Virus record (IMG/VR): IMGVR_UViG_2639762987_000003
Source: a virus
Lineage: Duplodnaviria; Heunggongvirae; Uroviricota; Caudoviricetes
Length of the DNA: 48,166 nucleotides
Strand: one strand, 5' to 3'
Below, one piece after another: positions 38 to 48,166 of this stretch. The position numbers and the translations under genes were made by a program. The notes under the pieces were generated by a model. That model had not been told where the DNA came from, did no database searches, and saw only the letters and a list, made by a program, of their open reading frames with translations. The number at the start of each line of letters is the position of its first letter. Position 1 is the stretch's first letter.

Positions 38-625
38 TTATGCCACTTGCCAGAGAGCATCATGCAACTGGATACCTCCATTGCACTGGTTGCCCCAGCC
101 ATGCCAACCATCAGGTAAATCACCGCGAGAAAACAGCTCAATACGAGGAACATCACCTAACAGCCTTACCAGCTTGTCACGAACCACATCAGGCTTCCGA
201 GAATGCTCCAGACGAGGCGATGTAAACGACTGAATGATCCCCGCATCAAGGCGGGTCGGCAATTTGCCTTTTACCGCAAACAAGCAATCTTCACTGTTTG
301 CACGAGTCATATGCCCCATCCCCATCACCAGCTTATCTGGTTGTCGGCTACCACATTTGTTCCATGTGAAGCCCTTCATGGTCATAAGCCTGAATCCCCA
401 TGCTTTCACCACCAGCAACGCTTCTTCTGGCTGAGTCGGAACCCACCACATGGCCAACAAACACGATTCAGGATTAGCAAGCTGCCAGACAGGAATACGA
501 GCAATATCCTCAGCTTTCATCGTTGGATACTTAAAACCAGCTCCACGATTCCCATCCTTACACTTATCTTTGTATTCCCAGGGGGGATCTGCATAAATCA
601 GATTAAACAATGCAATTGCCTCCAT
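38..625 (-). CDS. DNA N6-adenine methyltransferase, MT-A70-like
   Basis: 195-aa ORF with DPPW motif (LIYADPPWEY) typical of MT-A70/Dam-like phage methyltransferases. Confidence 0.75.
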   Translation of the reverse strand: MEAIALFNLIYADPPWEYKDKCKDGNRGAGFKYPTMKAEDIARIPVWQLANPESCLLAMWWVPTQPEEALLVVKAWGFRLMTMKGFTWNKCGSRQPDKLVMGMGHMTRANSEDCLFAVKGKLPTRLDAGIIQSFTSPRLEHSRKPDVVRDKLVRLLGDVPRIELFSRGDLPDGWHGWGNQCNGGIQLHDALWQVA

Positions 626-933
626 GTTAGTTGTGCCTCCGGCGCTGATCTCCGGCAGTCATAACGCTGGCCAGCTCTACAGCAGACACAACGAAAAGGG
701 CACTAACCAGACTGATTAATGCCCTTGCCTGTTGTGTGCCGGATATCGCCCGACAACGCTGTTTTGGTAACACGGCTACAGTTCCGTGCCGCTCCAGCTT
801 TTACCCCTTTGCGGATAACAGGCCCTGCCTGTAACTTAGCCCCACGTTCGCCCGAAATGCGCACCAGGCACGCATAAAGATGAGCACGAAGGAAGTAACT
901 CCACCGCGCTTATCTTTATGTGTGAGAGTGAAT

Positions 934-1009
934 TGGTGGCCCCTACCGGATTTGAACCGATGACCGTGCGATTATGAGTCGCCTGCTCTAACCACTGAGC
1001 TAAGGGGCC
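934..1009 (-). tRNA. tRNA with CAU anticodon; acceptor, D and anticodon arms resemble E. coli tRNA-Ile2 (ileX-type), elongator tRNA-Met not excluded
   Basis: Reverse complement folds as a 76-nt cloverleaf: 7-bp acceptor stem GGCCCCT/AGGGGCC, D-arm GCTC-AGTGGTTA-GAGC, anticodon loop CTCATAA, T-arm ATCGG-TTCAAAT-CCGGT, terminal CCA encoded. Confidence 0.85.
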
Positions 1010-1150
1010 ATATTTGATCTGTTTGTCTGGTGTGGCGCCGCGCACGAAAATCCCAGCCAATAAATTCAGGATTTTTGGGCGCGGCGGCATATCAGACAAA
1101 CATGGTTGATGCGTGCGCCCATGAGAAAAGCGCATAGAATGTTGTAACTA

Positions 1151-1178
1151 TATATTTATATAATTATAGAAATATATA
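1151..1178. promoter_or_regulatory. AT-rich element containing perfect palindrome TATAATTATA (1159-1168)
   Basis: Member of a dispersed AT-rich motif family; lies between the lysis cassette and the tRNA. Confidence 0.5.
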
Positions 1179-1358
1179 TTACTTGGGGCAGTTGATTTCC
1201 CATGCCCTGTTATGAGCCAGAATATCTTTCTTTGTCTGGCGGTCCATAACATCGATATCGTGATCAGTCAGGTAGATGGGCTTTACCCAATCACAGGCGG
1301 TATCAACCACCACCGGGACGCTTCCACGACTCCCGCAGCTCGCGATCAACATCGTCAT
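1179..1358 (-). CDS. o-spanin (Rz1-like outer-membrane lipoprotein), overlapping the Rz-like gene out of frame
   Basis: Short ORF with lipobox-like LIASC near the N-terminus; overlaps the 3' part of the adjacent ORF in another frame at the end of the lysis cassette. Start chosen at an internal Met of the 1179..1388 track ORF. Confidence 0.5.
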   Translation of the reverse strand: MTMLIASCGSRGSVPVVVDTACDWVKPIYLTDHDIDVMDRQTKKDILAHNRAWEINCPK

Positions 1359-1581
1359 CAGCCATATGGTTAACACTCTGATGTACATTCCCCACCTCTT
1401 TTGTCACTTCTATACGCCGCTCCGCAGTGGCTTTTACGGCGGCTGCATTCTCATTAATGCGCTGCTTTTCAGCTTCATCTTCGGCCTTTTCTCGCCCCTT
1501 CATACGACCAAAACCAAACGCGCCGAATGCAACCAATATAATTGTGCCAATAAATGACAAAACGGCCTTCAAACCAGTCAT
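1303..1581 (-). CDS. i-spanin (Rz-like), N-terminal transmembrane helix and charged periplasmic part
   Basis: 92-aa ORF with N-terminal hydrophobic segment then charged/coiled region; start overlaps the endolysin stop. Confidence 0.55.
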   Translation of the reverse strand: MTGLKAVLSFIGTIILVAFGAFGFGRMKGREKAEDEAEKQRINENAAAVKATAERRIEVTKEVGNVHQSVNHMADDDVDRELRESWKRPGGG

Positions 1582-2120
1582 ACCACCACTCGCTCTTTCA
1601 TCCAGCCGTAGACAAACGACTCATTCGCCTCGCGCTTCTCCGCCAGCTCCAGATAGCGTTCGCCCTGCGTACAGTTCAGCGACGTCAGCATCACCCGTTC
1701 GCCGTCTTTTCCCCGATTCCCAAGATAAGCACGCAGCGCATTAATGGTACGTGGACCGATTCGTCCATCTGCATCCAAATCGGGATACAGCTTCCCACGC
1801 AGATTGAACACATTCAGCCAGCGTTGAAGCATTTTGGACGCCACTGTTGGCCCCATATTCACACCGGTATCACACAGCTCTGCGGCAATATCAGAGGATA
1901 ATGCGGCCACCTGATCAAAGCGTGGTCCGTACCAGTAATCAGCCTCAAGGATTTCCAGTGCCTGTTCGCGGGTTAAATCGCGCATATCGCCACGGTATCC
2001 ATGAGCACGGGCAGTGTTCTGAGTAATGCCCCACTTTGTTGGGCCTCCCTTGTCGTCAGGGTGATCCACATAGCCGCCCTCTTTTCCAAGAACGCTGTTA
2101 AAAATCTCATCTTTGGTCAT
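1578..2120 (-). CDS. Endolysin, GH108-type N-terminal domain with peptidoglycan-binding C-terminal domain
   Basis: Motif EGGYVDHPDDKGGPTKWGIT near the N-terminus is characteristic of GH108 lysozymes; sits between holin-like and spanin genes. Confidence 0.8.
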   Translation of the reverse strand: MTKDEIFNSVLGKEGGYVDHPDDKGGPTKWGITQNTARAHGYRGDMRDLTREQALEILEADYWYGPRFDQVAALSSDIAAELCDTGVNMGPTVASKMLQRWLNVFNLRGKLYPDLDADGRIGPRTINALRAYLGNRGKDGERVMLTSLNCTQGERYLELAEKREANESFVYGWMKERVVV

Positions 2121-2403
2121 GATTAAACCCTAATGCGTCAACTATCCGCGCCAGATTGCCCCTGAAATACAGAACAACGATGCAGATAATCAGATTTCCA
2201 ATAACCACCAGCCAGTGGGATTCTTGATAAAGACCGAACACATAACGGAAGGGAACATTGGCGTATACAATGACGTAAATATAAGCCAGAAAGGAAACAA
2301 ATGGACGATGCCTGGAGTCTTTCCGTCGATAAAGCATCAGCGCCATTACTATTACTGTGCAAAGCACCGCATTAATCAGTGCTGACGGGTCACTGCTTAC
2401 CAT
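2107..2403 (-). CDS. Holin-like or antiholin-like small membrane protein
   Basis: Several hydrophobic segments; located between the holin and the endolysin. Start uncertain (internal Met chosen). Confidence 0.45.
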   Translation of the reverse strand: MVSSDPSALINAVLCTVIVMALMLYRRKDSRHRPFVSFLAYIYVIVYANVPFRYVFGLYQESHWLVVIGNLIICIVVLYFRGNLARIVDALGFNHDQR

Positions 2404-2785
2404 TTGAACCCCCTCCACGTAAGCGGGAAAGCATTCCAAAGATGCTACCGAGATCCTGGCTGTTTACGAACGTGAGGATTTTAATGGTCAATGCAGCCAC
2501 AATAACCGCACCAAGCGCATCCAGAGGACGATCGTTGTAGCTGGTCCATTTAGCAAGAAATGAGCCAACTAACGGCGCTCCAATCACTCCAACAATGAAC
2601 GATGTAAAGAAATAGCCAATCAGCTTGAGACGGCTAATATTCACCGCTGTAGCAACATAGAAAACAGCGCCAGCAAATGCCCCGAATACAACGCCGTAAT
2701 CAATACCAGTTGCAATACCAAAAACGCTGGCACCCATCAGGCCACCAGCAGCAACGGCCGTACCGGAAATTGGTTCTGCTGACAT
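2390..2785 (-). CDS. Holin (multi-pass small membrane protein)
   Basis: 131-aa Gly/Ala-rich hydrophobic protein with charged C-terminus, first gene of the lysis cassette. Confidence 0.55.
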   Translation of the reverse strand: MSAEPISGTAVAAGGLMGASVFGIATGIDYGVVFGAFAGAVFYVATAVNISRLKLIGYFFTSFIVGVIGAPLVGSFLAKWTSYNDRPLDALGAVIVAALTIKILTFVNSQDLGSIFGMLSRLRGGGSNGKQ

Positions 2786-2797
2786 TGAAATCCTCGT

Positions 2798-2830
2798 TAA
2801 AAAAAAAGCCCCGCCGAAAAAGGCAGGGCT
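2798..2830 (-). terminator. Rho-independent terminator immediately upstream of the holin start
   Basis: On the minus strand, 9-bp GC-rich stem (one G-U pair), 6-nt loop, followed by a run of 9 U. Confidence 0.65.
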
Positions 2831-2975
2831 TCATAAAGCAACAAATTACGCGGTAATCGCTTAACGCAGTTTTACTACGTTAAATGAAACACTACACCCA
2901 GTTACCACCTAAAACAAGGTTTCCCCATAAAAAAACCTTCATATCGTGGTTAATCGATCAATAAAAAAGCAATGT

Positions 2976-3167
2976 TCAACTTTTTACCAACTGAACATCC
3001 CGACCAGGACTTCCATAATATTCGCCGATATTCCACTGCTTAAGTTGAGTAATCTTCTCCAACTTAACTCCCACAGAATCCAATTTCTGCCATGTTTTCG
3101 GTTGTATGTGCCTCATTACCCGCTCTGAATATCTAAATACTGCTCGTAGCCTCGCTAAATTGCTCAC
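2976..3167 (-). CDS. Hypothetical small protein
   Basis: 63-aa ORF with GGAGG Shine-Dalgarno 6 nt upstream of a GTG start; overlaps the stop of the upstream gene. Confidence 0.4.
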   Translation of the reverse strand: MSNLARLRAVFRYSERVMRHIQPKTWQKLDSVGVKLEKITQLKQWNIGEYYGSPGRDVQLVKS

Positions 3168-3880
3168 TTGTCGCCTCCTTTACGAATCTGTTCCGCCCAC
3201 TCCTCAAGAGATTTCTCCGCATATTCACCGGACAGGCCATCAATCGGGTGCGGTTCATTAGCCAACTCTTCTTTCGCTGACAAAATCATGCGTGTAACGT
3301 CGAAAACTTCACGCAAAGACTTATTGATAAATCCGTGATTGAACGCAGCAGCAAGACGGCTTGCGGTGTAGTTAATCCCCTCGTTGCGTGCCTCCGCACG
3401 TATTTCAGCCAGGAAAGCATCGGTGGCTGGAATGGGCTTTTGTGGTGATATAGCAATGCGAATTGTCTCAAGGTCTGGAGCTGTTTCCGCTGTTGGCACC
3501 TTGATATAACCCGTCTGCACCCCATTCATGATGAACCTGCGACGGTCATCACATATCGCCTTAAGCCCTGCATTCTCCGCCGCCAGCGCCGCACGACTGG
3601 CCTCCAGTTCAGCAATGCGTTTGCTTTGTGCTTCCCGTTCATTCAGCAACGCCTGCACTACTTCTGGGTTGAAAGCTGCGATATAACGAGCGTTGTTCTC
3701 TGCGTTTTTCTGTCCGTCAAAGCCGGTCCATTTGATAACGTCTTCACATCGTTTATCACCGGGTGTATGCACCGCATATGTACCAGTACCCGACGAAATA
3801 AATGCGACCCATTCGCCTTGTGTTGCCTGTTTTGCTATCTCACGTAGTGCCTGATAGTTAATTGCTGTGCTGTTAGTCAT
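3164..3880 (-). CDS. Ea22/Ead-like lambdoid early-region protein
   Basis: Resembles Ead/Ea22-like proteins by eye (segment YAVHTPGDKRCEDVIKWTGFDG...AAFNPEVVQALL); start set at Met with GGAGG 7 nt upstream. Confidence 0.45.
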   Translation of the reverse strand: MTNSTAINYQALREIAKQATQGEWVAFISSGTGTYAVHTPGDKRCEDVIKWTGFDGQKNAENNARYIAAFNPEVVQALLNEREAQSKRIAELEASRAALAAENAGLKAICDDRRRFIMNGVQTGYIKVPTAETAPDLETIRIAISPQKPIPATDAFLAEIRAEARNEGINYTASRLAAAFNHGFINKSLREVFDVTRMILSAKEELANEPHPIDGLSGEYAEKSLEEWAEQIRKGGDK

Positions 3881-4217
3881 TCCAGGCCTCCAGCTCGTTC
3901 TGAATCTCCTCGTCAACCTCGTCATTGGTGGCGTCTTCGTTCAGATGGTCGCGCGCCTCTTTGAGATACTGTTCACGGCGTTCGTGGTACCAGGCTGAGA
4001 ACTCCGGCGACCATCCTCGATTAGCCCCCTGAAAATCTACCATCGCATTATCCTCGGCCATACGCTCGACCATGCAATCCGCGGTGTTCAGTGCAACCTC
4101 ACGGATGTACCCCCGCAGGTCGCGCTTACGCCAATACGGGCTATATTTTGAGTCGCAGCGGCCTTTAAATTCGACGGTCCAGCGACGGATGCAGCGTGCG
4201 TTAAGTGATTTGCTCAT
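3873..4217 (-). CDS. Hypothetical protein
   Basis: 114-aa ORF in a tightly packed minus-strand operon. Confidence 0.45.
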   Translation of the reverse strand: MSKSLNARCIRRWTVEFKGRCDSKYSPYWRKRDLRGYIREVALNTADCMVERMAEDNAMVDFQGANRGWSPEFSAWYHERREQYLKEARDHLNEDATNDEVDEEIQNELEAWND

Positions 4218-4219
4218 AG

Positions 4220-4831
4220 TTATGCTTCCTTAATACGCTTAAACTCAATTACCCATACCCACGGGTTAGATAGCCAGTTCTCTTGCCCGTAAATACCGCG
4301 CCAGATATCACCAAAGCCAACGCGATAAACAGCTTCCGGCGGTGTAATCTTGTACGTCACCGGAGATGCGCCTTCTGCTTTAGCATCTGCCTCGCTCATG
4401 TCATGCAGCCGCTCCACACGCACGTCGGTAATTTCCAGCAAAATACGCGAAGCCCAGCGCGGCATGTGAATCGACGGGGTCCAGCCCTCAGCTGGCTTGC
4501 TACTATCTGAGTAATCAGCCTTGTAATCACACAGTTCAGAAGCCAGAGAGACACCATCTTTGATTTCCTGAATGACATCGTTATCCAGCCAAAAAGCGTT
4601 GAATGTTTCACGGACCCATATGCGATCACCAACGTTACCGAACGGGCATAAACCATGTTCCAGTGCATCCATAACGTGGGTATAGACACCATTGCGTTTC
4701 TTTGTCGGTTTACGGATAACCAGGCAGTTATCGGCCCTGACATTTTTTACAGGTCGGCGAGTCTGCGTCTTCCTTCCTTCGAGGATGGCCCTAACCATAT
4801 CGTCATTAAAAACAACACCACGTTCTTTCAT
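4220..4831 (-). CDS. Hypothetical phage protein with conserved N-terminal GRKTQTRRP motif
   Basis: 203-aa ORF; motif recalls a conserved phage protein family but the family cannot be named with confidence. Confidence 0.45.
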   Translation of the reverse strand: MKERGVVFNDDMVRAILEGRKTQTRRPVKNVRADNCLVIRKPTKKRNGVYTHVMDALEHGLCPFGNVGDRIWVRETFNAFWLDNDVIQEIKDGVSLASELCDYKADYSDSSKPAEGWTPSIHMPRWASRILLEITDVRVERLHDMSEADAKAEGASPVTYKITPPEAVYRVGFGDIWRGIYGQENWLSNPWVWVIEFKRIKEA

Positions 4832-5082
4832 TTAGAAGCCACCTTGTTCAATTTCCGGCGACAAGACACGCAATCATCAGGACTCTCAAAAGTGTCTGGC
4901 TCACGGTAATCACCAAAATACATCCAACGGCCGCAAATGCTGGTTACTTCACCTTCATTAAAATAATGATGTTTATTCGCCTTCATTGGCCTGACCCATC
5001 CGGCATTTTTCTTGCTCACTTCAACTCCTCCCGACGACGTTCCTGAAGCTCTAGCATTGCGGCTCGGAAATCCTGCCACCAT
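4828..5082 (-). CDS. Hypothetical small Cys-containing protein (true start may be the internal Met at 4986)
   Basis: ORF overlaps the upstream gene by 67 nt unless the internal start is used. Confidence 0.35.
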   Translation of the reverse strand: MVAGFPSRNARASGTSSGGVEVSKKNAGWVRPMKANKHHYFNEGEVTSICGRWMYFGDYREPDTFESPDDCVSCRRKLNKVASK

Positions 5083-5381
5083 TCCTCATCTGCAACGGGG
5101 GTGTTCCGCTCCAGCACCTTGTCCGCATCAGCGATCAGGTTTGCCAGACTCTTGTCTGAAATCTTCGTTACCGGAGTCGTTGGTTGCTCAACCTGCCCGA
5201 TAGGTTTTATCGTGCTCAAAAGGAGGCGACGGCGGGAAAGTGGTGCCCCACAACGACGGCCATCTTCCTTGCGATATGTTTCTTTCGGACCAACACACCA
5301 GGTTGTCGGCGTTTCGCGCAACTTCACTCTTTTCTCACCATCATTGGTAATGATTATTCCGGTATGGGTTTTGATGCTCAT
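5016..5381 (-). CDS. Hypothetical protein
   Basis: 121-aa ORF in operon context. Confidence 0.4.
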   Translation of the reverse strand: MSIKTHTGIIITNDGEKRVKLRETPTTWCVGPKETYRKEDGRRCGAPLSRRRLLLSTIKPIGQVEQPTTPVTKISDKSLANLIADADKVLERNTPVADEEWWQDFRAAMLELQERRREELK

Positions 5382-5680
5382 GCCACAGCCCCTCTCAACG
5401 GCTTAACTTTGGCTAATAAGGTGTTAAACAACATGGAGTTAGGATTCATGCCAAATGGCAATTCCGGTTTAGCGGAGTAGTACAGGCAACCATTTATTTT
5501 CCTGGTTGTTATCTGTCCTTCGGCAACCATGCTTCTCAGTCTGCAACGCATAGAGTTCTGCGACACACCAATGTGCTCCGCGATTACGTCCACTTTTGAA
5601 CATGGGTGATCGGTCAGGAAATTAATCACATCTTGGGGGTTAATAATTTTGCGTTTCATTGTCGAGGCGTCCTTATACAT
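5378..5680 (-). CDS. Hypothetical protein, possible small DNA-binding regulator
   Basis: 100-aa ORF directly downstream of an AT-rich motif and a hairpin terminator. Confidence 0.4.
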   Translation of the reverse strand: MYKDASTMKRKIINPQDVINFLTDHPCSKVDVIAEHIGVSQNSMRCRLRSMVAEGQITTRKINGCLYYSAKPELPFGMNPNSMLFNTLLAKVKPLRGAVA

Positions 5681-5704
5681 TTGTATAAATATATAATTCT
5701 ATAT

Positions 5705-5736: not shown

Positions 5737-6804
5737 TCAGGCTTTCAATAGCGATTCTTTTAGATATCGGGCATCAGCCAGGGCGTTTGGAGTAATCTTG
5801 CGAACCCATGCATTACGGGTTGGACTCCACTTAAAGGCGCGTGATTTAAGCAGCGAACGAATGTTTGCCTCTGGTTTGCCAGGGAAATAAAACAGGATGC
5901 GGTTATCCTCTGGATCTATCTCCATAGAAAAGCCGTCGTATTCTTCGCGCTGTGCTCCTGTTACAGACTTGACCGATTCAAGCTCCTTAATACGGCTCTG
6001 TAGTCGTTTGATTTCGGCGTTATTGTTGCTCAGTGCGTATGAAGGGAATCCGATGTGCCCACAGAAATCTCCGGCCAGTAACTCTTTGGCTTCGCTTTCT
6101 GTAAACCTGAGATCGATTAATGCAGAAAGCTGCTGTATTTGGTCTTTTTTGTATTTGCGAATGGCCTTATTTGCGGCCTTCATTTTGACGTGTGACTTCA
6201 TGCAGCCTTGCAGCTTACGAAGCAACTTAAATAGCGCATCAGGATCATCAGACGAAATTCCATTACGACCAACACCTGCGGCTTTGCTCTCGTAGTGTGA
6301 TGCTTTACTTTCGCATTCAACAAACGCTTTTCTGAATAACGCATCAGCTTTAGACAAACGGCGGCGATGGCCTTTCGCGCTATAATGGTCAACTAAAATC
6401 GGCTGGCCTAACGGGATCACATCCAACAGGTCATGCGCTCGCTTATGCGCTACCGCACCTTCTTTTCTGGCTTTTTCTGCACGAGCAATATATCGGGCAA
6501 GACGCGCGTTCTGGCGTTCCTGATAGGTGTTTACGTAATCATCTCCGCGCTGCTGCTGTTCAAGCCATGCTTTGCGCAGATCTTCTGTTACGTCCACCAG
6601 CTCCGCAGGGATACAACCAGTTTGGGCTTCATAAGAGTAACCATCCTCATAGATACGCCCATCGTCTTCAACAAAGAAAAAGGTTTCGTGCTCATCGCTT
6701 TTGACCATACGACCATTAACATGGCGTAATAGGTAGCCAGTATCAGTGCTTAACAGGCTGTTAGGGTTGTTGATCCAGTCAGAAATAATTACTTGTTTAT
6801 TCAT
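5737..6804 (-). CDS. Hypothetical 355-aa protein, first gene behind promoter cassette A
   Basis: Start set at the ATG 8 nt downstream of the cassette's GGAG; the longer track ORF (from 6858) translates the conserved leader. Confidence 0.6.
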   Translation of the reverse strand: MNKQVIISDWINNPNSLLSTDTGYLLRHVNGRMVKSDEHETFFFVEDDGRIYEDGYSYEAQTGCIPAELVDVTEDLRKAWLEQQQRGDDYVNTYQERQNARLARYIARAEKARKEGAVAHKRAHDLLDVIPLGQPILVDHYSAKGHRRRLSKADALFRKAFVECESKASHYESKAAGVGRNGISSDDPDALFKLLRKLQGCMKSHVKMKAANKAIRKYKKDQIQQLSALIDLRFTESEAKELLAGDFCGHIGFPSYALSNNNAEIKRLQSRIKELESVKSVTGAQREEYDGFSMEIDPEDNRILFYFPGKPEANIRSLLKSRAFKWSPTRNAWVRKITPNALADARYLKESLLKA

Positions 6805-6912
6805 CAGATTTCTCCGGTTTAACCAGGGCGGGTATCGCTCGGTTTCGGGTATAACCATAGGAAATTTTTTCCCACCTGTAAAGCACTTTTTATATAAATC
6901 TATAATTATATA
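6801..6912 (-). promoter_or_regulatory. Promoter-leader cassette copy A: TATAATTATA palindrome, -35 TTTACA, 17-bp spacer, -10 TATGGT, ~45-nt leader, GGAG, ATG
   Basis: Near-identical to 16776-16877 and 48055-48166; lies about 60 bp downstream of the Q-like gene. Confidence 0.6.
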
Positions 6913-6973
6913 TTTATAGATTTTCGATGTTCCCGATGTCTACACACCATCAAAACAGCTCAAAATGACACTT

Positions 6974-9343: not shown

Positions 9344-9461
9344 ACCACGATACGTGGTATTAAAACCACATATCGTGAGTTTTTCAATGGGCGAAACAAA
9401 AAATAACCTTCTATTTGTGGTCCACCTCTCGTCTTACCATGTGAAAACCACTAAATGTGGT
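9344..9461. promoter_or_regulatory. Operator cluster: ACCAC-N5-GTGGT palindromes at 9344-9358 and 9447-9461, imperfect site at 9365-9379
   Basis: Perfect inverted-repeat half-sites with 5-bp spacer in the divergent promoter region; the 9447 site abuts a TATAAA -10-like element before the repressor start. Confidence 0.65.
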
Positions 9462-9498: not shown

Positions 9499-10155
9499 AT
9501 GAAAAGCAACGACGAGAACATCAAGAAAGAAATAGGTCTGCGCATTCAGACTCTACGGAAACAATCCGGCATGACTGCCGGAGATCTCCAGCAAGTCACT
9601 GGAATAGGCTTAAGCACCTTGCAGAACTATGAGGCCGGATTAAGACAACCATCTATACCTGCCATCAAGAAAATCGCGCACGCCCTGAAAGCATCAGCGC
9701 CTTATATCGCGTGCTTAACAGATAACCCGTTCCCACCCCAGAATACTAACGCTCCTGTTATTCCTGGGCTTGTAGCTATAAAAAATGACATAGCATCGCA
9801 CGCCGGAGAAAAGCCAGTGCTGGCGATAGAACAGGAGATTCTACGAAGCAAGAACATCAACCCATCGTCTCTGTCAGTTCTCCAGAGCAACGATGAGTTA
9901 ATGTCACCAACAATATCCCCAGGCTCCCAAGTCCTGATTAATACAGACGATACAGAGATTCATGAGGGGATCTATGCCCTTGAAGACAGAAATGGCCTGG
10001 TTGTTTTGAGGCACTGTAGAGTCATACCGGGTGACAATGCTGTTATGCTGTCAACCGAAAGGGATGCTGAAATGAACACTAAGCATCTGAATAACGAGGA
10101 ATTTAAGCGTTATAAAGTTCTTGGCCGCGTAGTTAGTGTTGTCAACTGGTTATGA
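9499..10155 (+). CDS. CI-like repressor (N-terminal HTH, C-terminal LexA/S24-like fold)
   Basis: HTH segment (MTAGDLQQVTGIGLSTLQNYEAG) and C-terminal domain alignable by eye to lambda CI; the Ser of the S24 'SM' motif appears replaced (DELMSPT). Confidence 0.7.
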   Translation: MKSNDENIKKEIGLRIQTLRKQSGMTAGDLQQVTGIGLSTLQNYEAGLRQPSIPAIKKIAHALKASAPYIACLTDNPFPPQNTNAPVIPGLVAIKNDIASHAGEKPVLAIEQEILRSKNINPSSLSVLQSNDELMSPTISPGSQVLINTDDTEIHEGIYALEDRNGLVVLRHCRVIPGDNAVMLSTERDAEMNTKHLNNEEFKRYKVLGRVVSVVNWL

Positions 10156-10197: not shown

Positions 10198-10212
10198 ACC
10201 ACATTTTGTGGT
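10198..10212. promoter_or_regulatory. ACCAC-N5-GTGGT operator site next to a TTGACA -35-like hexamer
   Basis: accacattttgtggt immediately upstream of TTGACA, before the 10248 gene. Confidence 0.55.
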
Positions 10213-10627: not shown

Positions 10628-10650
10628 AGCGGGCTAACGCCCGCTTATAT
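10628..10650 (+). terminator. Rho-independent terminator-like hairpin
   Basis: agcgggc-taac-gcccgct followed by a T/A-rich stretch just after the 10248..10622 stop. Confidence 0.5.
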
Positions 10651-10750
10651 GATTATAGATTTATATAATTATATAAAACGCTTTTCATCAGCCAAAAAGT
10701 TGGTTATGCTTACCTCGTTCTATAAATATAGATTTATAGAATTATATAAC
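10651..10750. promoter_or_regulatory. Two AT-rich palindrome elements upstream of parA (perfect TATAATTATA at 10664-10673; variant TAGAATTATA at 10737-10746)
   Basis: Same motif family as at 23-32, 1159-1168, 6901-6910, 11429-11438 and 16866-16875. Confidence 0.55.
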
Positions 10751-10772
10751 CAAACACATGGAGCCTCGACAA

Positions 10773-11426
10773 ATGACTATCTCTGTAGGTATTTTCAACG
10801 GAAAAGGCGGCGTAACCAAATCAACAATTGCCCGTGCTTTAGCAGTTGCTTATGCAAAGGCTGGCTGGAATGTATGCCTGATCGATATGGATGTGCTTAA
10901 CGGAACGGTAACGCGTTGGGTACAACGCAGAATGGCCAACAATATCGAACCAGCAATCGCGGCGCAGCCGTGCGGCACACCATCACAAGTCCAGAAAATC
11001 ATCGAATCAGAAGTATACGACCTGGTTATCGTCGATGGCGGTGCCTACGCATCTGAATCAGTACCGAAGCTATCTGAATTTCTGGATATGGTTATTTTGC
11101 CAACCCGATTCTCTACCGATGACCTGGAAACCACCGTTAACACTGCTCACGGCATCGTTAAAAAGGGTGTACCAATCAAGAAAATTTGCATGGTGTTTTC
11201 CGGCGCGGCTGAAAACGAAGCTGACTATATTGAAGCCCAAGAGTACCTGGCTAATACGCCATACTTTGTTGTCGATAAGTACATTCCCCACAAGCCAGCT
11301 CTGAGCAAAGCTCAGGATAAGGGCTTAAGCCTCATTGAGTGCTCATACGTTGCGCCACGCAAAAAGGCAGACGACGTTATTCAGGGGATTATCAACCAGC
11401 TTGAGGCTCTGACTACTGCCGCATAA
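10773..11426 (+). CDS. parA: ParA-family partition ATPase (small type Ib)
   Basis: Deviant Walker A motif GKGGVTKST near the N-terminus; start set at the ATG 9 nt after GGAG. Confidence 0.8.
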   Translation: MTISVGIFNGKGGVTKSTIARALAVAYAKAGWNVCLIDMDVLNGTVTRWVQRRMANNIEPAIAAQPCGTPSQVQKIIESEVYDLVIVDGGAYASESVPKLSEFLDMVILPTRFSTDDLETTVNTAHGIVKKGVPIKKICMVFSGAAENEADYIEAQEYLANTPYFVVDKYIPHKPALSKAQDKGLSLIECSYVAPRKKADDVIQGIINQLEALTTAA

Positions 11427-11457
11427 TATATAATTATAGTTTTATAGATTTATATAA
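11421..11457. promoter_or_regulatory. AT-rich palindrome element (TATAATTATA at 11429-11438) between parA and the small downstream gene
   Basis: Motif family member followed by tatagatttatata. Confidence 0.5.
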
Positions 11458-11469
11458 GAGGGGATACAC

Positions 11470-11718
11470 ATGGCCGCACCATCAAAACCACCAAAGAAGA
11501 ACAGCAAAGGCGTACCGCCATCGATCGAACAACCGCAGGTTTTCGACCCGACTGAAACGCCAACCAGAACCAAATCAGGTGGGGCACAAATGGCGTTTAA
11601 CGTCGACCCTGAATTTAAACGCGAGTACAAAACGTTCGCCAGCTCAATGGATATGTCATTGAAAGAAGTGCTGACAAAGTCTTTTGAGTTACTCAAGGCT
11701 CAATACAACCAGAAGTAA
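11470..11718 (+). CDS. Small ParG-like (putative ribbon-helix-helix) partition partner
   Basis: 82-aa protein with a Pro/Lys-rich flexible N-terminus, directly after parA; fold assignment is inferred from size and position. Confidence 0.45.
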   Translation: MAAPSKPPKKNSKGVPPSIEQPQVFDPTETPTRTKSGGAQMAFNVDPEFKREYKTFASSMDMSLKEVLTKSFELLKAQYNQK

Positions 11719-11937: not shown

Positions 11938-11963
11938 CATAAAAAAAGGCCCCCGAAGGGGCC
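11938..11963 (-). terminator. Rho-independent terminator for minus-strand transcription
   Basis: Stem aggcccc/ggggcct with GAA loop, followed on the minus strand by 7 U. Confidence 0.65.
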
Positions 11964-11969
11964 TAATCG

Positions 11970-12092
11970 CTACTTGCTGCTAATGTTTATCGTCACATTC
12001 AGAGCGTTATCAGTAATCTTCCAACCCTCCCCATGTGGCGTAAACAAAGCCCCAGTAACAACGATAAAAATACACATACAGTATTTTTTCAT
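11970..12092 (-). CDS. Candidate 40-aa hydrophobic peptide (possible type I toxin or small secreted peptide)
   Basis: MKKYCMCIFIVVTGALFTPHGEGWKITDNALNVTINISSK; AAGGG 8-12 nt upstream of the ATG; own terminator downstream. Confidence 0.35.
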   Translation of the reverse strand: MKKYCMCIFIVVTGALFTPHGEGWKITDNALNVTINISSK

Positions 12093-12415
12093 TGTATGGC
12101 CCTTACAGGCCGTTTCACGGCATCCCCACCGACGAAAACAACGCGAGAGCAAGCACGGCTGCTTGTGCTTGCATGTACGGCAACGGAGAATCCTCCCCTA
12201 AAGTCGGTGCCCGGGTGCGAATCGGCGGGAAGGTCCACAGGTATTTTACGATTATTTTAAGATTAGTAATAGGAAAGAAATTAAACGAAAAAACTCGTTT
12301 ATTTTCACAAAATCAGTAACCTACCCACAATCTGTGAGTTTGCAGGCACAACAAGAACCACAATTTTTTGAAGCATAATAGTGGACTATTATTACCTTTT
12401 GGGTAAAATTAACTT

Positions 12416-12585: not shown

Positions 12586-12682
12586 GCGCCATTGGTGGAC
12601 ACTTTCCGAGCCGTAGCAAAATCTACGGTCGGGATTGGAACCCCGTGGACACAATGGCGCATACCGCGTTAGCGGTTTTTTT
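12586..12682 (+). ncRNA. Candidate structured regulatory RNA domain (P1 c4-like antisense RNA analogue)
   Basis: 9-bp closing stem gcgccattg/caatggcgc (12586-12594 with 12652-12660) encloses a hairpin and the element GAUUGGAACC; ends with a short hairpin plus 7 T. Confidence 0.35.
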
Positions 12683-12848
12683 ATGCGTAAAGCACTGCTA
12701 CACCCAAATTATGGTGGGGCGTGCGGGGGAGTCGTAAGACTCGCCGGTTCGTCATTGTGTCCGGTAGTTCCAACCCTGCACGTCTCACCACCCAATGATT
12801 GGAACCTGACGGTGGTGAGTATCCTTAACCTTTAAGGGAATCATCACA

Positions 12849-13040
12849 ATGACAAACCTACCCCATGACTATTACGTCAACCTCGTAAAGATCCTTCTCA
12901 AGAAAGCCTCATACGCCGATAAATTCCGCCTGGCTGAAATCATCGAGCGCGAAGCTATGCGCATCGCCAGCAACGATAACGCTGTTTCTGACGCAAAAAT
13001 CTCCCTCGTAACCAAAGTAGTTATGGGAGGTGCAAAATGA
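12849..13040 (+). CDS. Small protein upstream of and overlapping ant (icd-like position)
   Basis: 63-aa ORF with AAGGGA 9 nt upstream; its stop overlaps the ant start. Confidence 0.4.
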   Translation: MTNLPHDYYVNLVKILLKKASYADKFRLAEIIEREAMRIASNDNAVSDAKISLVTKVVMGGAK

Positions 13041-14179
13041 AAACGCTTCCGACCGTTAACACCCTACAGCCTATCCTGCATAACCAGATCCCCGTTATCA
13101 CTAGTGAACTTCTGGCGCAGTTATACGGAACAAAAATCAAAAACATTTCTGATAACTTTCTGAACAACACGACGCGATTCGTAGCCGGAAAGCATTACTT
13201 TAAAATTGAAAAAAACGAATTACGCGAGTTCAAGAACAGACCCGAAACAATCGGGTTAGTTGGTAAAAATGCCCGCTCCCTAATTCTCTGGACCGAACGC
13301 GGGGCTGCACGTCACGCTAAAATGCTCGAAACCGATCAGGCGTGGGATGTATTCGAACGGCTGGAAGACTGCTACTTCAACCAGAACGCGCAAACGGCCG
13401 CGACCGTAACCGTCTCGCCAAACAATGCTCGTGAGGTTGTCGATACGCTCAACGCCAAACCGATGTTTTACATTAAGGTGTGCAATAACGAGCCACTCAC
13501 AACCTCAGCCGATGTTGCCCAAGCATTCAGCACCACAAACAATTCCATCGTTATGGCCATCGATGCGTTACGCATTCCTCGCACAGCTGCGGCGCGTCAT
13601 TTCTTTAAAGAGCAACGACCGTTGGAAGGAAGCGACCGCGAAATAACAATCTATCGCATGACAAAAGACGGATTTACCTTGCTCATGGAGAGTATCGACG
13701 GTCCAGGCGTGAAAGATATCAAGCTGGCCTACATTGAAGCCTTTAACGCTATCAGCAGCGTGTTAAAAACACAGTACGAGCGTGATCTGGCTAAACGACT
13801 GTACCAGGAAAAAACGATTATCCGCGCGGCAACAGAGCATAATCGGCTATTAACGGAACCGAACTACAGGAAGGAACTAATAAAGGAGTTTGACAAGGCA
13901 ACAGGGAAAACCAAAGCGGCGCTAAATCTGCCAGCAATGACTCAGGAAAATGTGATATCAGCCTTACTTCTTGATCTGCTCAGAAACGCCAGAGCACTTA
14001 TCAGCTTTGACGAAAATCTGAACCCTCAGCTCAAACTACTACCACCGACAGGCAAAGTAGTCGACCAAGCTGATCACAACAGCATACTCAGCGTACTGGA
14101 TGCAAACCTGCCAGCCAGGACACTACAGGAACTGATAAAAATATCTGCGGATAAACTGGCCGCAGGTGCAAAACCATAA
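13037..14179 (+). CDS. Antirepressor (Ant-like)
   Basis: 380-aa protein whose N-terminal region resembles antirepressor N-terminal domains (ITSELLAQLYGTK...RFVAGKHYFKI...LWTERGAARHAKML). Confidence 0.7.
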   Translation: MKTLPTVNTLQPILHNQIPVITSELLAQLYGTKIKNISDNFLNNTTRFVAGKHYFKIEKNELREFKNRPETIGLVGKNARSLILWTERGAARHAKMLETDQAWDVFERLEDCYFNQNAQTAATVTVSPNNAREVVDTLNAKPMFYIKVCNNEPLTTSADVAQAFSTTNNSIVMAIDALRIPRTAAARHFFKEQRPLEGSDREITIYRMTKDGFTLLMESIDGPGVKDIKLAYIEAFNAISSVLKTQYERDLAKRLYQEKTIIRAATEHNRLLTEPNYRKELIKEFDKATGKTKAALNLPAMTQENVISALLLDLLRNARALISFDENLNPQLKLLPPTGKVVDQADHNSILSVLDANLPARTLQELIKISADKLAAGAKP

Positions 14180-16387: not shown

Positions 16388-16768
16388 TTACTTAACGAGG
16401 AATAAAAATGGTTTATCGTTCGGCGGTGTAATCGGGGCTGGCTCGCTTTTGCTCATGCGATCAGTGTACCAGGCCAACTCCTTGTCAAAGTAAGCCTGAT
16501 TAAAATAGGCCATGAATGTGGTTTCAAATCCATAACGACCGCTAATACGCAGCATCTGATTGCCGTTCTCTGTTTCCAGATATACCTGGGCACGTTCCTG
16601 ATTCTCCTTCAGCCAGGTTAAAGCCTCATCGCACGAGGACAAACGATACTCATCATCGTAGCCGTCATCGATGCGGCTTGAAGAAGAACGGCAAATCACG
16701 CCAACAGAACCAGCCAGGATAGTTTGAATTTTAAGGAAAGCGTTTTTGCGGATTTTAATCATGCTCAT
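16388..16768 (-). CDS. Hypothetical protein, first gene behind promoter cassette B
   Basis: 126-aa ORF whose ATG lies 8 nt after the cassette's GGAG. Confidence 0.5.
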   Translation of the reverse strand: MSMIKIRKNAFLKIQTILAGSVGVICRSSSSRIDDGYDDEYRLSSCDEALTWLKENQERAQVYLETENGNQMLRISGRYGFETTFMAYFNQAYFDKELAWYTDRMSKSEPAPITPPNDKPFLFLVK

Positions 16769-16775
16769 CGGGTTA

Positions 16776-16877
16776 TCTCCGGTTTAACCAGGGCGGGTAT
16801 CGCTCGGTTTCGGGTATAACCATAGGAAATTTTTTCCCACCTGTAAAGCACTTTTTATATAAATCTATAATTATATA
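16776..16877 (-). promoter_or_regulatory. Promoter-leader cassette copy B (identical to copy A over 102 bp)
   Basis: Same -35 TTTACA / -10 TATGGT / leader / GGAG as copy A; contains TATAATTATA at 16866-16875. Confidence 0.6.
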
Positions 16878-16889
16878 ATTCTATGAGCA

Positions 16890-20054: not shown

Positions 20055-20069
20055 ACCACGTTACGTGGT
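20055..20069. promoter_or_regulatory. ACCAC-N5-GTGGT operator site upstream of the repA leader
   Basis: accacgttacgtggt; same palindrome family as the repressor operators. Confidence 0.55.
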
Positions 20070-21629: not shown

Positions 21630-24475
21630 TATGCAAGCCTCACAATATAATTAAATGCGATGTTTTTAACGGTGTTTTCCGCGTTACCAGCAGCGTTAAC
21701 GGTGATGGTGTGTCCATGTGAACCAATCTTAACAGAGTGCGTATGAGCGCCAATACCAACAGTGTGTGCATGTGCCCCAGCACTTGTAGCGGTACCTGAT
21801 ACTGAGTGGGTATGTGCGCCAGAAGAAGGCACAGTTCCATTCCCCACCACCGTGCCACTTGATGAACCATCCAGCCAGTCGAAATTCATACCGCCACTGT
21901 TTGGTCTCCTTAATGGAACGGTATGAGTATGTGCGCCAGCACTATTTGCAGTACCAGATACATTGTGGGTATGTGCACCTGTGTTATTCGTTGATTTAGT
22001 ACCGTAATCAAACGACGATGTGGTTTTCGTACCCAAATCCGTACTGGATGCGCTGGCACTGTGGGTGTGCGATTTAATGCCATCCTGTTCCTGAGACAAT
22101 ACGGCCCGACCACTGGCGGGTTTGCCCTTGATTGTCCAGCCGCGCATATCTGGAATAACACCAGAAGGATAGGCAATAGCCAGTTTCGGATATGCTGCCT
22201 TATCAAACGTCTGCCCCTGCATGATTGCATAACCTGCAGGTGGCGTATCTGATGGCCACGGCAGCGGAACACCTGGCGGAAACGCTTCAATATTTGCCGA
22301 GCCGTCAAATTTTACGCCGTTAATTGTCCTTGCCGTTTTCAGCTTTGTTGCTGTAGCAGCATTGCCGGATAGTTCGCCTGAAAGACCACCGCTGAATGTC
22401 TGTTTCGCCATCCATGTCTGAGCTTCGTCGATAATTGGCACACGTCTTGTCGTGATCGTGCGGCTTCCCGGATTTCCTGAAATGCGAACCATAAAAAAGC
22501 GGTAGTTGGCTTTACTTACAGTGCTGCGCCATACATGCATTGAGCGTCCCGAACCAGAATCATCACTCGGACCGACTGAGATGTTTATCAGGTTGCCATC
22601 AATGACGCCCCAGTCCATACCGTCGGGAATATTGGTCATGTTATCAAGCCGAACGGTTATCAGACTGCCCGGCACAAAATCGTAGGTCTGCCAGTCCAGG
22701 CTGGTGAGCTTTGCCACAGCACCGCCGATACCCAGATTCAGGGGAAGTGAATACGAGGTGTAGACTTCCCGCCATTCGCTCCATGAGCTGCCGGTAAAGA
22801 CGCGCTCAAAGGTGCGGCCTTTAAGGGTTGTACCTGTTCCGGCAGTTGTATAACGCTGCCATACATTAACACCATCAAACCGCCTCAACACTTCCAGAAT
22901 GCCGAGTACAGTCACGCCGTTTCCGTCCAGTACTGGACCGTTGGTCGCTTTACCTGTAACGCTGTAAATACCTGGTGAGGTTACATCATTCAAATCACCT
23001 TCGTAATAACGACTCTCTGACTGATGACCGACTCTTAACCACGGTTCCCACTGCGGATTTGATGCATCCCAGCTTGCCGCAAGACAGCGGACATACATAT
23101 TTCCACGGCGAGTGGTATAACGTTGCGTTCTTCCATAATTTCCGCCTTCGAGGATCTCAAGCATCCCCTGAGCAAAGCCGCCTTCCTCTGGATAATTGCG
23201 TTCATATGAAGCTATAGCTGAGCTACTGTTACGCCATAAACCAAGATGCTCGGCGGCTCCAAGCGTATTCAGGTCTATAGTCGTACTCAAAGGGCGGGTA
23301 GCAGATTGAGTGTGACGCCATACGCCCCACGGACCATCAGTGCCATTCCACTTATTGGCGAGTTTACGCATGTATACATTGCCGCCTCCCGTGGTAAAGC
23401 GTTGCGTACCTGCAAAATTGCCGGCAGCAAAAACCTCAAGCACACCGACAGCATTATCTTCCGGGAAATTTTTCTCCAGTGTTGCGTTGGTGGATGTTGC
23501 TTTAGACCAGATACCTGAATAAGCCTTAACAGGACCAAACGTATTCAGATCAGCATCAAGCGGCATTTCGCCATTGTTTTTCATAAACGTCAGGCTGGTA
23601 ACGCCAACATTGTCCAGAAAAGCTGATTTATCCTGGATATCTGCACCGTTCTGATTTTTCGCCAGACGTGAATTTGCGTTGTCATTTGCTGCCTTGACCG
23701 CTTTTGGCGTTGCCGCCTGCGTTTCAGACGTACTGTTAGTGGCACTACTGAGCTGAACTATCCCTTTTTGTGCCGTGGTGGCATTCTGGGCGGTATATTT
23801 TCCGTCAGCCAGGTCATATGCAGCCTTAACAGCCTTAGGCGTCGCTGCGAGCTTTTCAGACGTGCTATTGGTGGCATTACTGAGTTGAACAATGCCTTTT
23901 GATGTTAAAGTTGCATCAGGATGATTACGTGATTGCTCATGTTTTACAATAGCTTGCTTAAGCCGCTTTGCTGAAACAGCCAGGGAATCATCTGTACCTG
24001 CATCAATTTCTTGTTCATTAGCAAATCTTGCTACTCCAACAACAGTTTCGGTTGCGGGAGGGTTAATAAACTCAACATCACCAAATGTAATGTTTTTAGT
24101 ATCAAGATTTTTAATTGCTATATCACTTGATATTAAAGCAATTGTAGAAGATGCTTTATTTATTATTACTTGTTCTTGCGAGTATACAGCAAACAATGTT
24201 CCTTTATTTGTATACAAACCTATTGTATGGACAGCATACTCATCTTTACTATCATCCTTCGCAGTTACATGAATGGTATCAGGAGAAACGACTTTGCCTC
24301 CTATTGTGGTAAGTCGCTTTATTTCATCTGTTATTTTTGTTTGTGTGGTTGATGTGGCATAATATCTACTACCTAAACCAACAGAAACGATCTCAACTTT
24401 ATTTGTTCCAGTCTTGTTGGCATTAACCAGCGCCTTACGCCCGGCGTCAGTCATCGTAAATAATAATTTACTCAC
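21629..24475 (-). CDS. Tail fibre protein
   Basis: 948-aa protein with His-rich GAH(T/A)H(S/T)V repeats at the C-terminus. Confidence 0.8.
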
Positions 24476-45568: not shown

Positions 45569-46185
45569 ACCTCCCCAGCCAGCAATGCGGATACAAATCC
45601 GATATAGCTGCCATTATCATCAACATAACGAGACACCGCGCAGTCAAAACGATCCGCTTCCTCATCCGTTGCCGGGATTTTATGACCTCCAAATGACAGG
45701 TACTGAACTTTTACGCCTGATTTGGCCTCATCCTTCTCAAATGGGATATCCATACCCTCTGTGTCATCGTAGACCGCCGCACTCAATAAGTTATCCAGTT
45801 CGCGCTGAGTAAAACCAATTGAGTCCAGAGCAAAATCATCGGCCGCAAGATCTGCAAGCTCCGCGCTTAACAACTCTTCATCCCAACCAGCATTCAGCGG
45901 AATACGGTTGTCGGCCAGACGATATGCCTTCTTCTGATTCTCCGTTAGCCCTTCCAGAACAATGCAGGGAACCTCATCCATCCCCAACTGAGTGGCCGCA
46001 GCAATTCGACCATGACCAGCAATTACAACGTTGTTCTCGTCTATCAGGATCGGATTAGTCCATCCGTACTCCTGTATGCTGGCAACAATCTGATCTACCT
46101 GCTCCACGGAGTGTGTGCGAGCGTTCTTTTCATAACCAATCAACACAGAAAGTGGTAAAGAAACCACATTAAGATGTTTTGTCAT
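45562..46185 (-). CDS. ParB N-terminal (nuclease-like) domain protein, paralogue of 42305..42895
   Basis: 207-aa protein with the same conserved segments as 42305..42895. Confidence 0.65.
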   Translation of the reverse strand: MTKHLNVVSLPLSVLIGYEKNARTHSVEQVDQIVASIQEYGWTNPILIDENNVVIAGHGRIAAATQLGMDEVPCIVLEGLTENQKKAYRLADNRIPLNAGWDEELLSAELADLAADDFALDSIGFTQRELDNLLSAAVYDDTEGMDIPFEKDEAKSGVKVQYLSFGGHKIPATDEEADRFDCAVSRYVDDNGSYIGFVSALLAGEVC

Positions 46186-47517: not shown

Positions 47518-47591
47518 CCCATGTTCTCCTTTGTCTGGATGTAAAAAAGCCCCGGCAATTGCCGAGGCTCGTTGTTCGTTATCGTTACGGT

Positions 47592-48058: not shown

Positions 48059-48166
48059 CAGATTTCTCCGGTTTAACCAGGGCGGGTATCGCTCGGTTTC
48101 GGGTATAACCATAGGAAATTTTTTCCCACCTGTAAAGCACTTTTTATATAAATATATAATTATATA
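48055..48166 (-). promoter_or_regulatory. Promoter-leader cassette copy C (continues across the circular join into positions 1-34)
   Basis: Same -35 TTTACA (48136-48131) / -10 TATGGT (48113-48108) / leader / GGAG as copies A and B; one mismatch in the AT-rich end; TATAATTATA at 48155-48164. Confidence 0.6.

Follow-up and report, generated by a model that had tools for sequence, protein, structure and literature searches.

How are the lysis genes of a phage expressed when a strong terminator stands directly in front of them, and does a tRNA gene encoded just behind them belong to the same unit? Both questions are raised by a locus in IMG/VR virus record IMGVR_UViG_2639762987_000003, a 48,166-nt sequence of a tailed phage (Caudoviricetes) that we refer to, at its full length, as the window. 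The initial annotation of this DNA described a lysis cassette bracketed by an upstream terminator and a downstream tRNA with a CAU anticodon. All the elements that it named (the terminator, two holin-like genes, an endolysin of glycoside hydrolase family 108 (GH108), overlapping spanin genes and the tRNA) are present within positions 934-2832; it gave no strand, and every one of them lies on the minus strand. The element that carries them is a temperate myovirus of ~48.1 kb kept as a plasmid in E. coli, that is, a phage-plasmid. We consider it probable that the lysis cassette of this phage-plasmid is gated by the terminator and opened by antitermination, and that the tRNA is a separate tRNA-Ile2 module for AUA codons. 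Both main features are of known kinds, the one a phage tRNA-Ile2 such as those of P1 (trnI) and the T4-like phages, the other a lambda-like, terminator-gated set of late genes; our findings leave current understanding in place and overturn nothing.

The terminator and leader in front of the lysis genes

With a hairpin energy of -21.9 kcal/mol, the terminator in front of the holin gene ranks by that measure in the top three of all sites in the 48-kb window at which a hairpin is followed by a T run. Its nine consecutive T residues (2807..2799, three of these counted in the stem) are the longest T run at any such site, and no T tract lies behind the hairpin on the opposite strand. The Shine-Dalgarno (SD) sequence of the holin gene, GAGGA at 2795..2791, begins 3 nt past the T run and is followed by the ATG at 2785. 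On the sequence, transcription of the lysis genes must read through the terminator, because the 3-nt gap between T run and SD leaves no room for a promoter. We compared three lineages, namely that of the window, a Salmonella lineage (loci L009, L010 and L028) and L015, between which backbone coding DNA is 70-74% identical. The terminator keeps its position in all three; it shows one compensatory pair and two wobble shifts, and its loop and inner-stem sequences differ. The Salmonella and L015 lineages also retain the upstream order of a 63-amino-acid (aa) open reading frame (ORF) homologue, leader and terminator, despite carrying a non-homologous lysis cassette with a different holin, a lysozyme-family endolysin that has an N-terminal hydrophobic segment, and an o-spanin gene within the i-spanin gene.

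A promoter of the lysis genes' own, which the initial annotation had named as the finding that would speak against control by read-through, was not apparent: there is no room for one behind the terminator, and a consensus scan found no sigma-70 promoter on the minus strand in 2833-2975, where an activator-dependent promoter could still be present. Likewise, no sigma-70 hexamer pair conserved across the three lineages was seen by eye in the leader alignment.

What is conserved in the leader is RNA-like. The leader is 85-88% identical to those of the Salmonella and L015 lineages, compared with 70-74% for coding DNA, and its predicted fold (z = -4.3) beats all 200 shuffled versions. Within it, a 57-nt core (2919..2863) is nearly invariant, with three variable positions in an alignment of 12 sequences. 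RNAalifold predicted a stem-loop (SL1), for which the Salmonella lineage supplies three compensatory pairs, an unpaired GU-rich stretch, an invariant SL2, a variable SL3 and the terminator, the covariation evidence being drawn from three lineages only. An exact 20-mer scan of species-representative genomes found no copy of the core; the same scan of IMG/VR found 10 loci, all within the three lineages, and a protein-based search with the 63-aa ORF returned only loci from contigs that the 20-mer scan had already matched. Of the 12 relative loci searched, 11 have a homologue of this ORF directly ahead of the leader, with all three lineages represented (52-97% amino-acid identity); none was found in the covered part of L017. 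The encoded protein is basic and has no match in Pfam, NCBIfam or the sequences of the PDB.

Two other identities for the leader were considered and set aside. The leader resembles the small RNA (sRNA) GcvB in combining a stem-loop at the 5' end with a GU-rich single strand and a U-rich terminator, and the Rfam model (RF00022) aligns to it end to end. However, the score lies below the gathering score of 42 bits and is inconsistent between lineages (34.3 bits in the window, 28.4 in L015, no match in L009), and much of it comes from the terminator; the leader of the window is not a member of that family. The motif ACCAC-N5-GAAGGTT in SL1 occurs a second time in the window, in the immunity region (9421..9405). 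A shared operator was not upheld; the Salmonella relative has the motif only in its leader, and the ACCAC of the SL1 RNA pairs with a downstream GGUGG.

The lysis terminator is not the only one on the way to the late genes. Polymerase heading for the structural genes would meet further strong intrinsic terminators on the same strand, whose T runs start at 47548 and 46320; they are placed after the first small genes and before the ParB/Srx-like genes, which in turn come ahead of the terminase gene. Candidate counterparts are found at the corresponding gene boundaries in the Salmonella relative (L028, at 744, 46207 and 46474). Together, these terminators and their counterparts suggest that processive antitermination is required for all of late transcription.

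The layout is reminiscent of the lambda pR'-qut-tR' module on which Q acts, with a strong terminator just before the lysis genes, where the early-right region ends, and no promoter after it. The lambdoid phage SaltyDalty, which is of the Q type, carries a homologous lysis cassette (70% DNA identity) in the same layout, preceded by a Q-like gene, a promoter and four terminators, of which the one nearest to the holin gene is ~50 nt away from it. The window differs from lambda in two features, for neither a Q-family gene just upstream nor a sigma-70 promoter like pR' was recognised in it. It also differs in that its conserved part is the 57-nt RNA-like core, with the small basic 63-aa ORF as upstream neighbour, and in the position of the terminator, 3 nt from the SD; lambda tR' lies hundreds of nucleotides before S.

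In characterised systems, read-through sets the onset of late transcription and the holin sets the moment of lysis. From the observed geometry of the terminator and its conservation across lineages, we infer antitermination and a short terminated RNA in the window. The cassette would have no promoter of its own and would be preceded by a structured leader of ~140 nt that ends in the terminator 3 nt before the holin SD. Regulated antitermination of the lambda tR' kind, switched on late in the lytic cycle, would be the most likely mechanism, and holin accumulation would then decide exactly when lysis occurs. Terminated transcripts would leave a short, structured, U-tailed RNA, as expected of a lambda-type module; in Stx phages, the corresponding RNA acts as the sRNA StxS (PMC7547250). 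The earlier proposal that read-through sets lysis timing can be kept in part. Read-through appears obligatory, judging by the 3-nt gap and by the position of the terminator in relatives with another cassette; the moment of lysis would belong to the holin, and neither an antiterminator nor a promoter was found.

Could the lysis genes instead be expressed by leakage? The hairpin and U tract might mark the end of the early-right operon, or of an sRNA derived from a 3' untranslated region, with lysis depending on constitutive leakage, its timing on holin and antiholin, and no antiterminator being involved. Several observations weigh on that side. Neither a promoter nor an antiterminator was found, a result that also counts against regulated antitermination, and, without a leader promoter, polymerase may come from the upstream operon and leak passively through the terminator. 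The seven genes in 2976-5680 gave no Q-family or otherwise informative match in Pfam, PHROG or NCBIfam, and a tblastn search with the Q-like protein of SaltyDalty found no homologue. Moreover, the leader is built like an Hfq-type sRNA, having stem-loops, a conserved unpaired GU-rich stretch and a long U tail on its terminator, and two holin-family genes are present. Yet a nine-T (T9) terminator of this hairpin energy would let little polymerase by, the strong terminators on the late path have candidate counterparts in a relative of only ~70-74% coding identity, and the homologous cassette of SaltyDalty stands under a Q-like system. These points lead us to favour regulated antitermination, and we regard leakage as unlikely.

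If lysis is gated by the terminator in the absence of a recognisable Q, the family probably uses an undescribed antitermination factor or RNA, and the leader indicates where it should be sought. The conserved leader core and its read-through factor are the part of the locus without a ready explanation and, with the dispersed AT-rich elements described below, the place where novelty might lie. One proposal, doubtful but not far-fetched, is that the core (the GU-rich strand and a hairpin with a short A-rich loop) and the 63-aa basic protein form an undescribed processive antitermination system akin to nut or put, and/or that the leader is a trans-acting sRNA of the GcvB/DapZ kind. The 63-aa protein is a weak candidate for a leader-specific factor. 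With a nut- or put-like system, polymerase would get past the T9 terminator to the lysis genes, and perhaps also past the remaining conserved terminators on the late path; as an sRNA, the leader would act on host mRNAs in the plasmid state by means of a GU-rich seed like that of GcvB or DapZ.

The CAU tRNA and the use of AUA codons

The resemblance of the tRNA to the AUA-decoding tRNA-Ile2, noted in the initial annotation, is borne out by comparison with the tRNAs of E. coli K-12. The tRNA is 89.5% identical to ileX (the K-12 tRNA-Ile next to mug was used as the reference) and 94.7% identical to the tRNA-Ile of a P1-type plasmid, but only 74% identical to the elongator tRNAs metT/metU and 61% to the initiator metZ. 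It matches ileX throughout the acceptor stem, the D arm and positions 27-42 of the anticodon arm. The eight differences fall at positions 43 and 44, at T-loop position 59 and at five T-stem positions, where the pairs 49:65, 50:64 and 51:63 are kept. The acceptor stem, GGCCCCU/AGGGGCC, is that of ileX, whereas metT has GGCUACG. It includes both C4:G69 and C5:G68, where metT has U:A and A:U; the 4:69 and 5:68 pairs are the major identity elements of E. coli TilS (PMC11947777). An ileX-type sequence is annotated as tRNA-Ile in all 5426 complete E. coli genomes, and a sequence identical to the tRNA of the window, on the 49.9-kb plasmid NZ_CP032259.1, is called tRNA-Ile by RefSeq/PGAP. For recognition by IleRS, A73, U12:A23, C29:G41, A37 and A38 reportedly matter as well, and the window tRNA has each of them. 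Judged by its sequence, we conclude that the CAU tRNA is an ileX-type tRNA-Ile2, a diverged copy of the host tRNA, in which lysidine at C34 and charging with isoleucine are to be expected.

ARAGORN and the GenBank records of Yersinia phages instead label it tRNA-Met, on the anticodon alone. A methionine tRNA is very improbable given the low identity to metT/metU and metZ, the ileX-type acceptor stem and the label that PGAP gives to the identical sequence; moreover, such mislabelling is documented in T4-like phages, all of which carry a lysidine-type CAU tRNA that software names Met (PMC1524935). The 'tRNA-Met' of the GenBank phage records is really tRNA-Ile2, which amounts to an annotation correction.

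The initial annotation also treated terminator, cassette and tRNA as one unit; this view does not hold. The tRNA is bracketed with the lysis genes in a positional sense only, since an AT-rich element with 8-bp periodicity and a hairpin with 34-nt arms lie between the Rz1 stop codon and the tRNA. The AT-rich element is a putative promoter/operator-like boundary between the lysis genes and a tRNA/methylase unit. In the Salmonella lineage, the AT-rich element and long hairpin are kept after the lysis cassette (77.6% identity) and followed by the MT-A70 methyltransferase region, and no tRNA is found anywhere on the 47-kb plasmid. L015 has the AT-rich element and long hairpin, then ~300 nt of extra sequence, and then a different CAU tRNA (6491-6566) with an ileX acceptor stem and a compensated anticodon stem (AGCGC/GCGCC versus GGCGA/UCGCA). 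The consensus helix of the long hairpin comprises 28 pairs (alignment columns 86-166), three of them with compensatory changes, across the three lineages including the one without a tRNA; the hairpin could be an RNA processing or stability element. On this comparison of sequences, we regard the tRNA as cargo in a variable slot at the head of the methylase unit, separate from the lysis unit. Its transcripts may start at its own element, come from polymerase reading on out of the lysis genes, or arise in both ways. Taken as a whole, the initial interpretation was largely right on the tRNA, plausible but unproven on the terminator, and wrong on the single unit.

Which genes might such a tRNA serve? 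Across 85 greedily called ORFs of the window, AUA makes up 16.9 per 1000 codons (255 codons; 25.9% of isoleucine codons), and it is the most abundant host-rare codon in the element. In 42 annotated E. coli K-12 genes, the value is 2.4 per 1000 (4.2% of isoleucine codons). For the whole E. coli genome, a figure nearer 4-5 per 1000 applies, above that of the 42-gene sample, and hence we give the excess over the host as four- to eight-fold. AUA is most frequent in the structural genes, at 20.6 per 1000 (31% of isoleucine codons; G+C at third codon positions (GC3) 0.33), and reaches 48-62 per 1000 in certain baseplate and head-completion genes. The immunity and plasmid genes have 16.5 per 1000 (22.4%; GC3 0.47), the early genes 8.3 (14.9%; GC3 0.50) and the lysis genes 8.8 (5 in 565 codons; 13.2%; GC3 0.50). 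In the tRNA-less Salmonella relative, the structural genes have 14.0 per 1000 (22.7%; GC3 0.44); the two lineages (20.6 versus 14.0 in structural genes) form a natural pair for the question of codon compensation.

The late structural genes are thus AT-rich and differ from the host sample in AUA use by 20.6 to 2.4 per 1000. To the extent that sequence evidence allows, this upholds the suggestion in the initial annotation of a tRNA that helps AT-rich late genes; the tRNA is not for its neighbours, the lysis genes. From its similarity to ileX, its identity elements and the codon counts, we infer that it is expressed, modified with lysidine and of benefit to translation. Host TilS would turn C34 into lysidine, IleRS would charge the phage tRNA and AUA would then be read, so that the extra copy of tRNA-Ile2 would relieve an AUA bottleneck in the AT-rich head, tail and baseplate genes.

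There are precedents for such a tRNA. P1 trnI is likewise a CAU tRNA with an ileX-like acceptor stem and anticodon arm in a phage richer in AUA than its host. The related tRNA-Ile of the P1-type plasmid is flanked by genes for an SPFH-domain protein and a dnaB-family helicase, which presumably correspond to P1 plp and ban. We take ileZ of the Stx phage 933W to be another phage tRNA-Ile2 of the lysidine type. Stx2 phages carry a 'tRNA-Met' and two tRNA-Arg genes next to late genes (PMC7946995). The window differs from these phage systems in that its tRNA is single, with no companion tRNA-Arg despite over-use of AGA and AGG, and in its variable slot, which lies between the lysis cassette and the MT-A70 gene of another phage-plasmid family, behind an AT-rich element and a long hairpin.

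A role in reading AUA in late genes has to be set against several facts. The major capsid gene (35556-36599, minus strand) has no AUA among its 9 isoleucine codons, and the lysis genes hold few. AGA and AGG, at 10.5 and 6.4 per 1000 against 1.2 and 0.7 in the host, are over-used about nine-fold, yet no tRNA-Arg is carried, and the Salmonella lineage copes with 14 AUA per 1000 codons without a tRNA. The 27:43 pair, G:U in ileX, is G:A in the window tRNA (position 43 being A and not U), a change shared with the P1-type trnI; anticodon-stem changes can impair E. coli TilS (PMC11947777), and efficient lysidinylation of the window tRNA is not certain. The tRNA might also be carried for some other reason, such as replacing a host tRNA lost to defence or shut-off, as a leftover of recombination or integration, or as plasmid cargo that serves AUA-rich acquired genes. 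The variability of the slot, which is without a tRNA in the Salmonella lineage and holds a different CAU tRNA with ~300 nt of further sequence in L015, would fit such a reason, as would the promoter-like element upstream, copies of which also serve plasmid-maintenance genes, making expression in the plasmid state possible. However, the gene is complete, with an encoded CCA, and its differences from ileX are spread along its length, unlike an attP fragment; of the genes covered by Pfam or PHROG scans, none matched an integrase, and the element has partition genes of the ParA type. An attP remnant was rejected on these grounds. In addition, the codon read by the tRNA is the most over-used rare codon of the element, and AUA use is higher in the tRNA-bearing than in the tRNA-less lineage. 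We therefore consider these other reasons quite improbable, and prefer the supply of an AUA-reading tRNA to the late genes.

As regards the capsid gene, its freedom from AUA is consistent with selection against a rare codon in the most highly expressed late gene.

Organisation of the lysis genes and their surroundings

In the direction of transcription, the order of features is 63-aa ORF, leader, terminator, holin gene, second holin-family gene, endolysin gene, Rz/Rz1, AT-rich element, small hairpin, long hairpin, tRNA, terminator-like hairpin and MT-A70 gene (Table 1).

Table 1. Positions of the features discussed, numbered as in the window; minus-strand features are given in the direction of transcription. 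SL, stem-loop; TMD, transmembrane domain
Feature	Position	Strand	Details
63-aa basic ORF	3167..2976	-	PHROG 9594, function not assigned there
Conserved structured leader, non-coding	2975..2833	-	143 nt; fold and alignment
SL1	2950..2904	-	includes ACCAC-N5-GAAGGTT at 2950..2934
GU-rich single-stranded stretch	2903..2883	-	part of leader
SL2	2883..2861	-	invariant; followed by variable SL3
Intrinsic terminator	2832..2799	-	GAAGCCCTGCC-TTTTTC-GGCGGGGCTTT, then T run; stem 2832..2805, 11 pairs, 7 G-C
Holin, 131 aa	2785..2390	-	PF16931 Phage_holin_8, E 1.7e-37; about four hydrophobic segments (hydropathy)
Second holin-family protein, 98 aa	2403..2107	-	PF05449 Phage_holin_3_7, E 1.2e-17
Endolysin, GH108 catalytic and PG_binding_3 domains	2120..1578	-	PF05838 Glyco_hydro_108, E 6e-27; PF09374, E 8.9e-27
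Rz-like i-spanin	1581..1303	-	PHROG 1026, E 1.3e-31; N-terminal TMD (residues 1-27)
Rz1-like o-spanin lipoprotein	1388..1179	-	PHROG 1275, E 1.3e-32; lipobox I-A-S-C
AT-rich element, copy B of eight	1186..1137	-	8-bp periodicity (TATA-N4); repeat search
Long imperfect hairpin	1102..1020	-	34-nt arms; 10 nt upstream of tRNA
tRNA-Ile2, anticodon CAU	1009..934	-	3' CCA encoded; ARAGORN; Rfam tRNA 67 bits, full length, standard cloverleaf
Terminator-like hairpin between tRNA and MT-A70 gene	726..696	-	14 pairs, tail TTCGTTGTGT
MT-A70 family DNA methyltransferase	625..38	-	PF05063, E 1.4e-22; kept in all three lineages
CI-like repressor	9499..10155
ParA-like partition protein	10758..11426
Antirepressor	13037..14179
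AT-rich TATA-N4 elements, eight sites	48131-48166/1-42, 1137-1186, 5662-5703, 6879-6920, 10634-10675, 10707-10748, 11425-11470, 16844-16885

The cassette, at the end of the early-right gene block, is of the canonical holin-endolysin-spanin type. It shares with other such cassettes of phages of Gram-negative hosts the gene order of holin(s), soluble muramidase-type endolysin, i-spanin with a TMD, and o-spanin starting inside the i-spanin gene; there is no difference of substance, the holin-family genes of the window being from two Pfam families. Both of these genes encode multiple hydrophobic segments, and they lie directly upstream of the gene for the muralytic enzyme. For the second, the ORF caller placed the start at a TTG at 2439; we used the 297-nt form that is annotated in RefSeq and GenBank relatives, and the 98-aa product could be a holin partner or an antiholin. 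Hydropathy analysis of the endolysin showed no signal or signal-anchor-release segment and no hydrophobic stretch; with no such segment, the enzyme is predicted to be soluble and to depend on the holin. The Rz1 gene shares 86 nt with Rz in another reading frame and extends past its end, an overlap that we liken to the architecture of P2 lysB/lysC.

Directly upstream of the MT-A70 start codon, all three lineages have a match to the Rfam family rydB that lies below threshold (22-29 bits; gathering score 50), at 628-683 (minus strand) in the window, 6137-6200 in L009 and 6932-6991 in L015. This small conserved hairpin may be a translational or leader element.

The phage-plasmid and its dispersed repeats

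The first 34 nt of the window exactly repeat the last 34 (1-34 and 48133-48166). Hence, the record holds a complete circular replicon whose ends overlap as written; without the overlap, its length is ~48,132 bp. Between 21 and 42 kb, the minus strand encodes a complete contractile-tail virion module, and terminase, portal, capsid, sheath, tape-measure, baseplate and tail-fibre genes were found. The G+C content is 44.5%, compared with 52% for a 50-kb stretch of K-12. The segment from lysis genes to tRNA (900-3200) matches 118 plasmid records in PLSDB, mostly from E. coli (including a 48.5-kb plasmid of the reference strain ATCC 25922) and also from Klebsiella, Salmonella, Enterobacter and Shigella; among the best 40 of the 118, all plasmids are of 47-52 kb except one of 94 kb. 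The same segment matches three Yersinia phages, vB_YpM_39, 41 and 44. We found no paper in the literature on the lysis region or tRNA of this phage-plasmid family or of the three Yersinia phages. The family is common yet essentially uncharacterised.

The AT-rich element between Rz1 and the tRNA is one of eight in the window. The TATA-N4-TATA-N4-TATA pattern is confined to these eight sites, all of them intergenic, and every copy points the same way as the gene downstream of it; in the direction of transcription, the element reads approximately TATAATTATAGATTTATATAA. The elements are conserved in the Salmonella relative, and the copy adjacent to the lysis genes is kept in the L009 and L015 lineages. 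Their sequences look like promoters or operators at operon starts, or like dispersed centromere-like sites for a small protein of the ParG/omega type. The 82-aa gene after parA has no PDB sequence match and belongs to no Pfam or NCBIfam family; that its product is a ParG/omega-like binder of the AT-rich repeats is a guess. Several of the elements directly follow terminator-like hairpins, and three flank parA and this 82-aa gene.

At three of the sites, the AT-rich element is part of a 121-nt block that also includes a shared 5' leader of ~85 nt (6792-6912, 16757-16877 and 48046-48166; copies 88-97% identical). The block precedes three unrelated genes, namely a DUF3560/primase-like gene, a 126-aa ORF and the gene that opens the late-direction block. 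It is 87-89% identical in lineages with 70-74% coding identity, and the fold of the shared leader has z = -3.0; it may be a common regulatory or antitermination leader.

A second family of dispersed sites consists of perfect or near-perfect palindromes, ACCAC-N5-GTGGT, at 9344-9358, 9365-9379, 9405-9421, 9447-9461, 10198-10212, 20055-20069 and 46142-46177. A cluster of them occupies the divergent region that separates the CI-like repressor gene from the early operon, and the rest lie in or beside intergenic regions elsewhere; they are probably repressor operators. The motif shared with the lysis leader, ACCAC-N5-GAAGGTT, is an asymmetric variant of these palindromes and is confined to 9421..9405 and 2950..2934.

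Three Rfam families matched the window above their gathering scores: ryfA (11942-12238, minus strand, 141.8 bits), isrK (12610-12682, plus strand, 65.8 bits) and C4 antisense RNA (12707-12795, plus strand, 77.8 bits). The isrK and C4 matches sit just upstream of another 63-aa ORF (12849..13040) and the antirepressor gene, an order that is that of the P1/P7-type immI region (the c4-icd-ant arrangement). Finally, direct repeats with a 120-nt period are found inside the tape-measure gene (29258-29539), and repeats spaced 132-159 nt inside the tail-fibre gene (21758-21979 and 23681-23900); both are typical internal repeats of such proteins.

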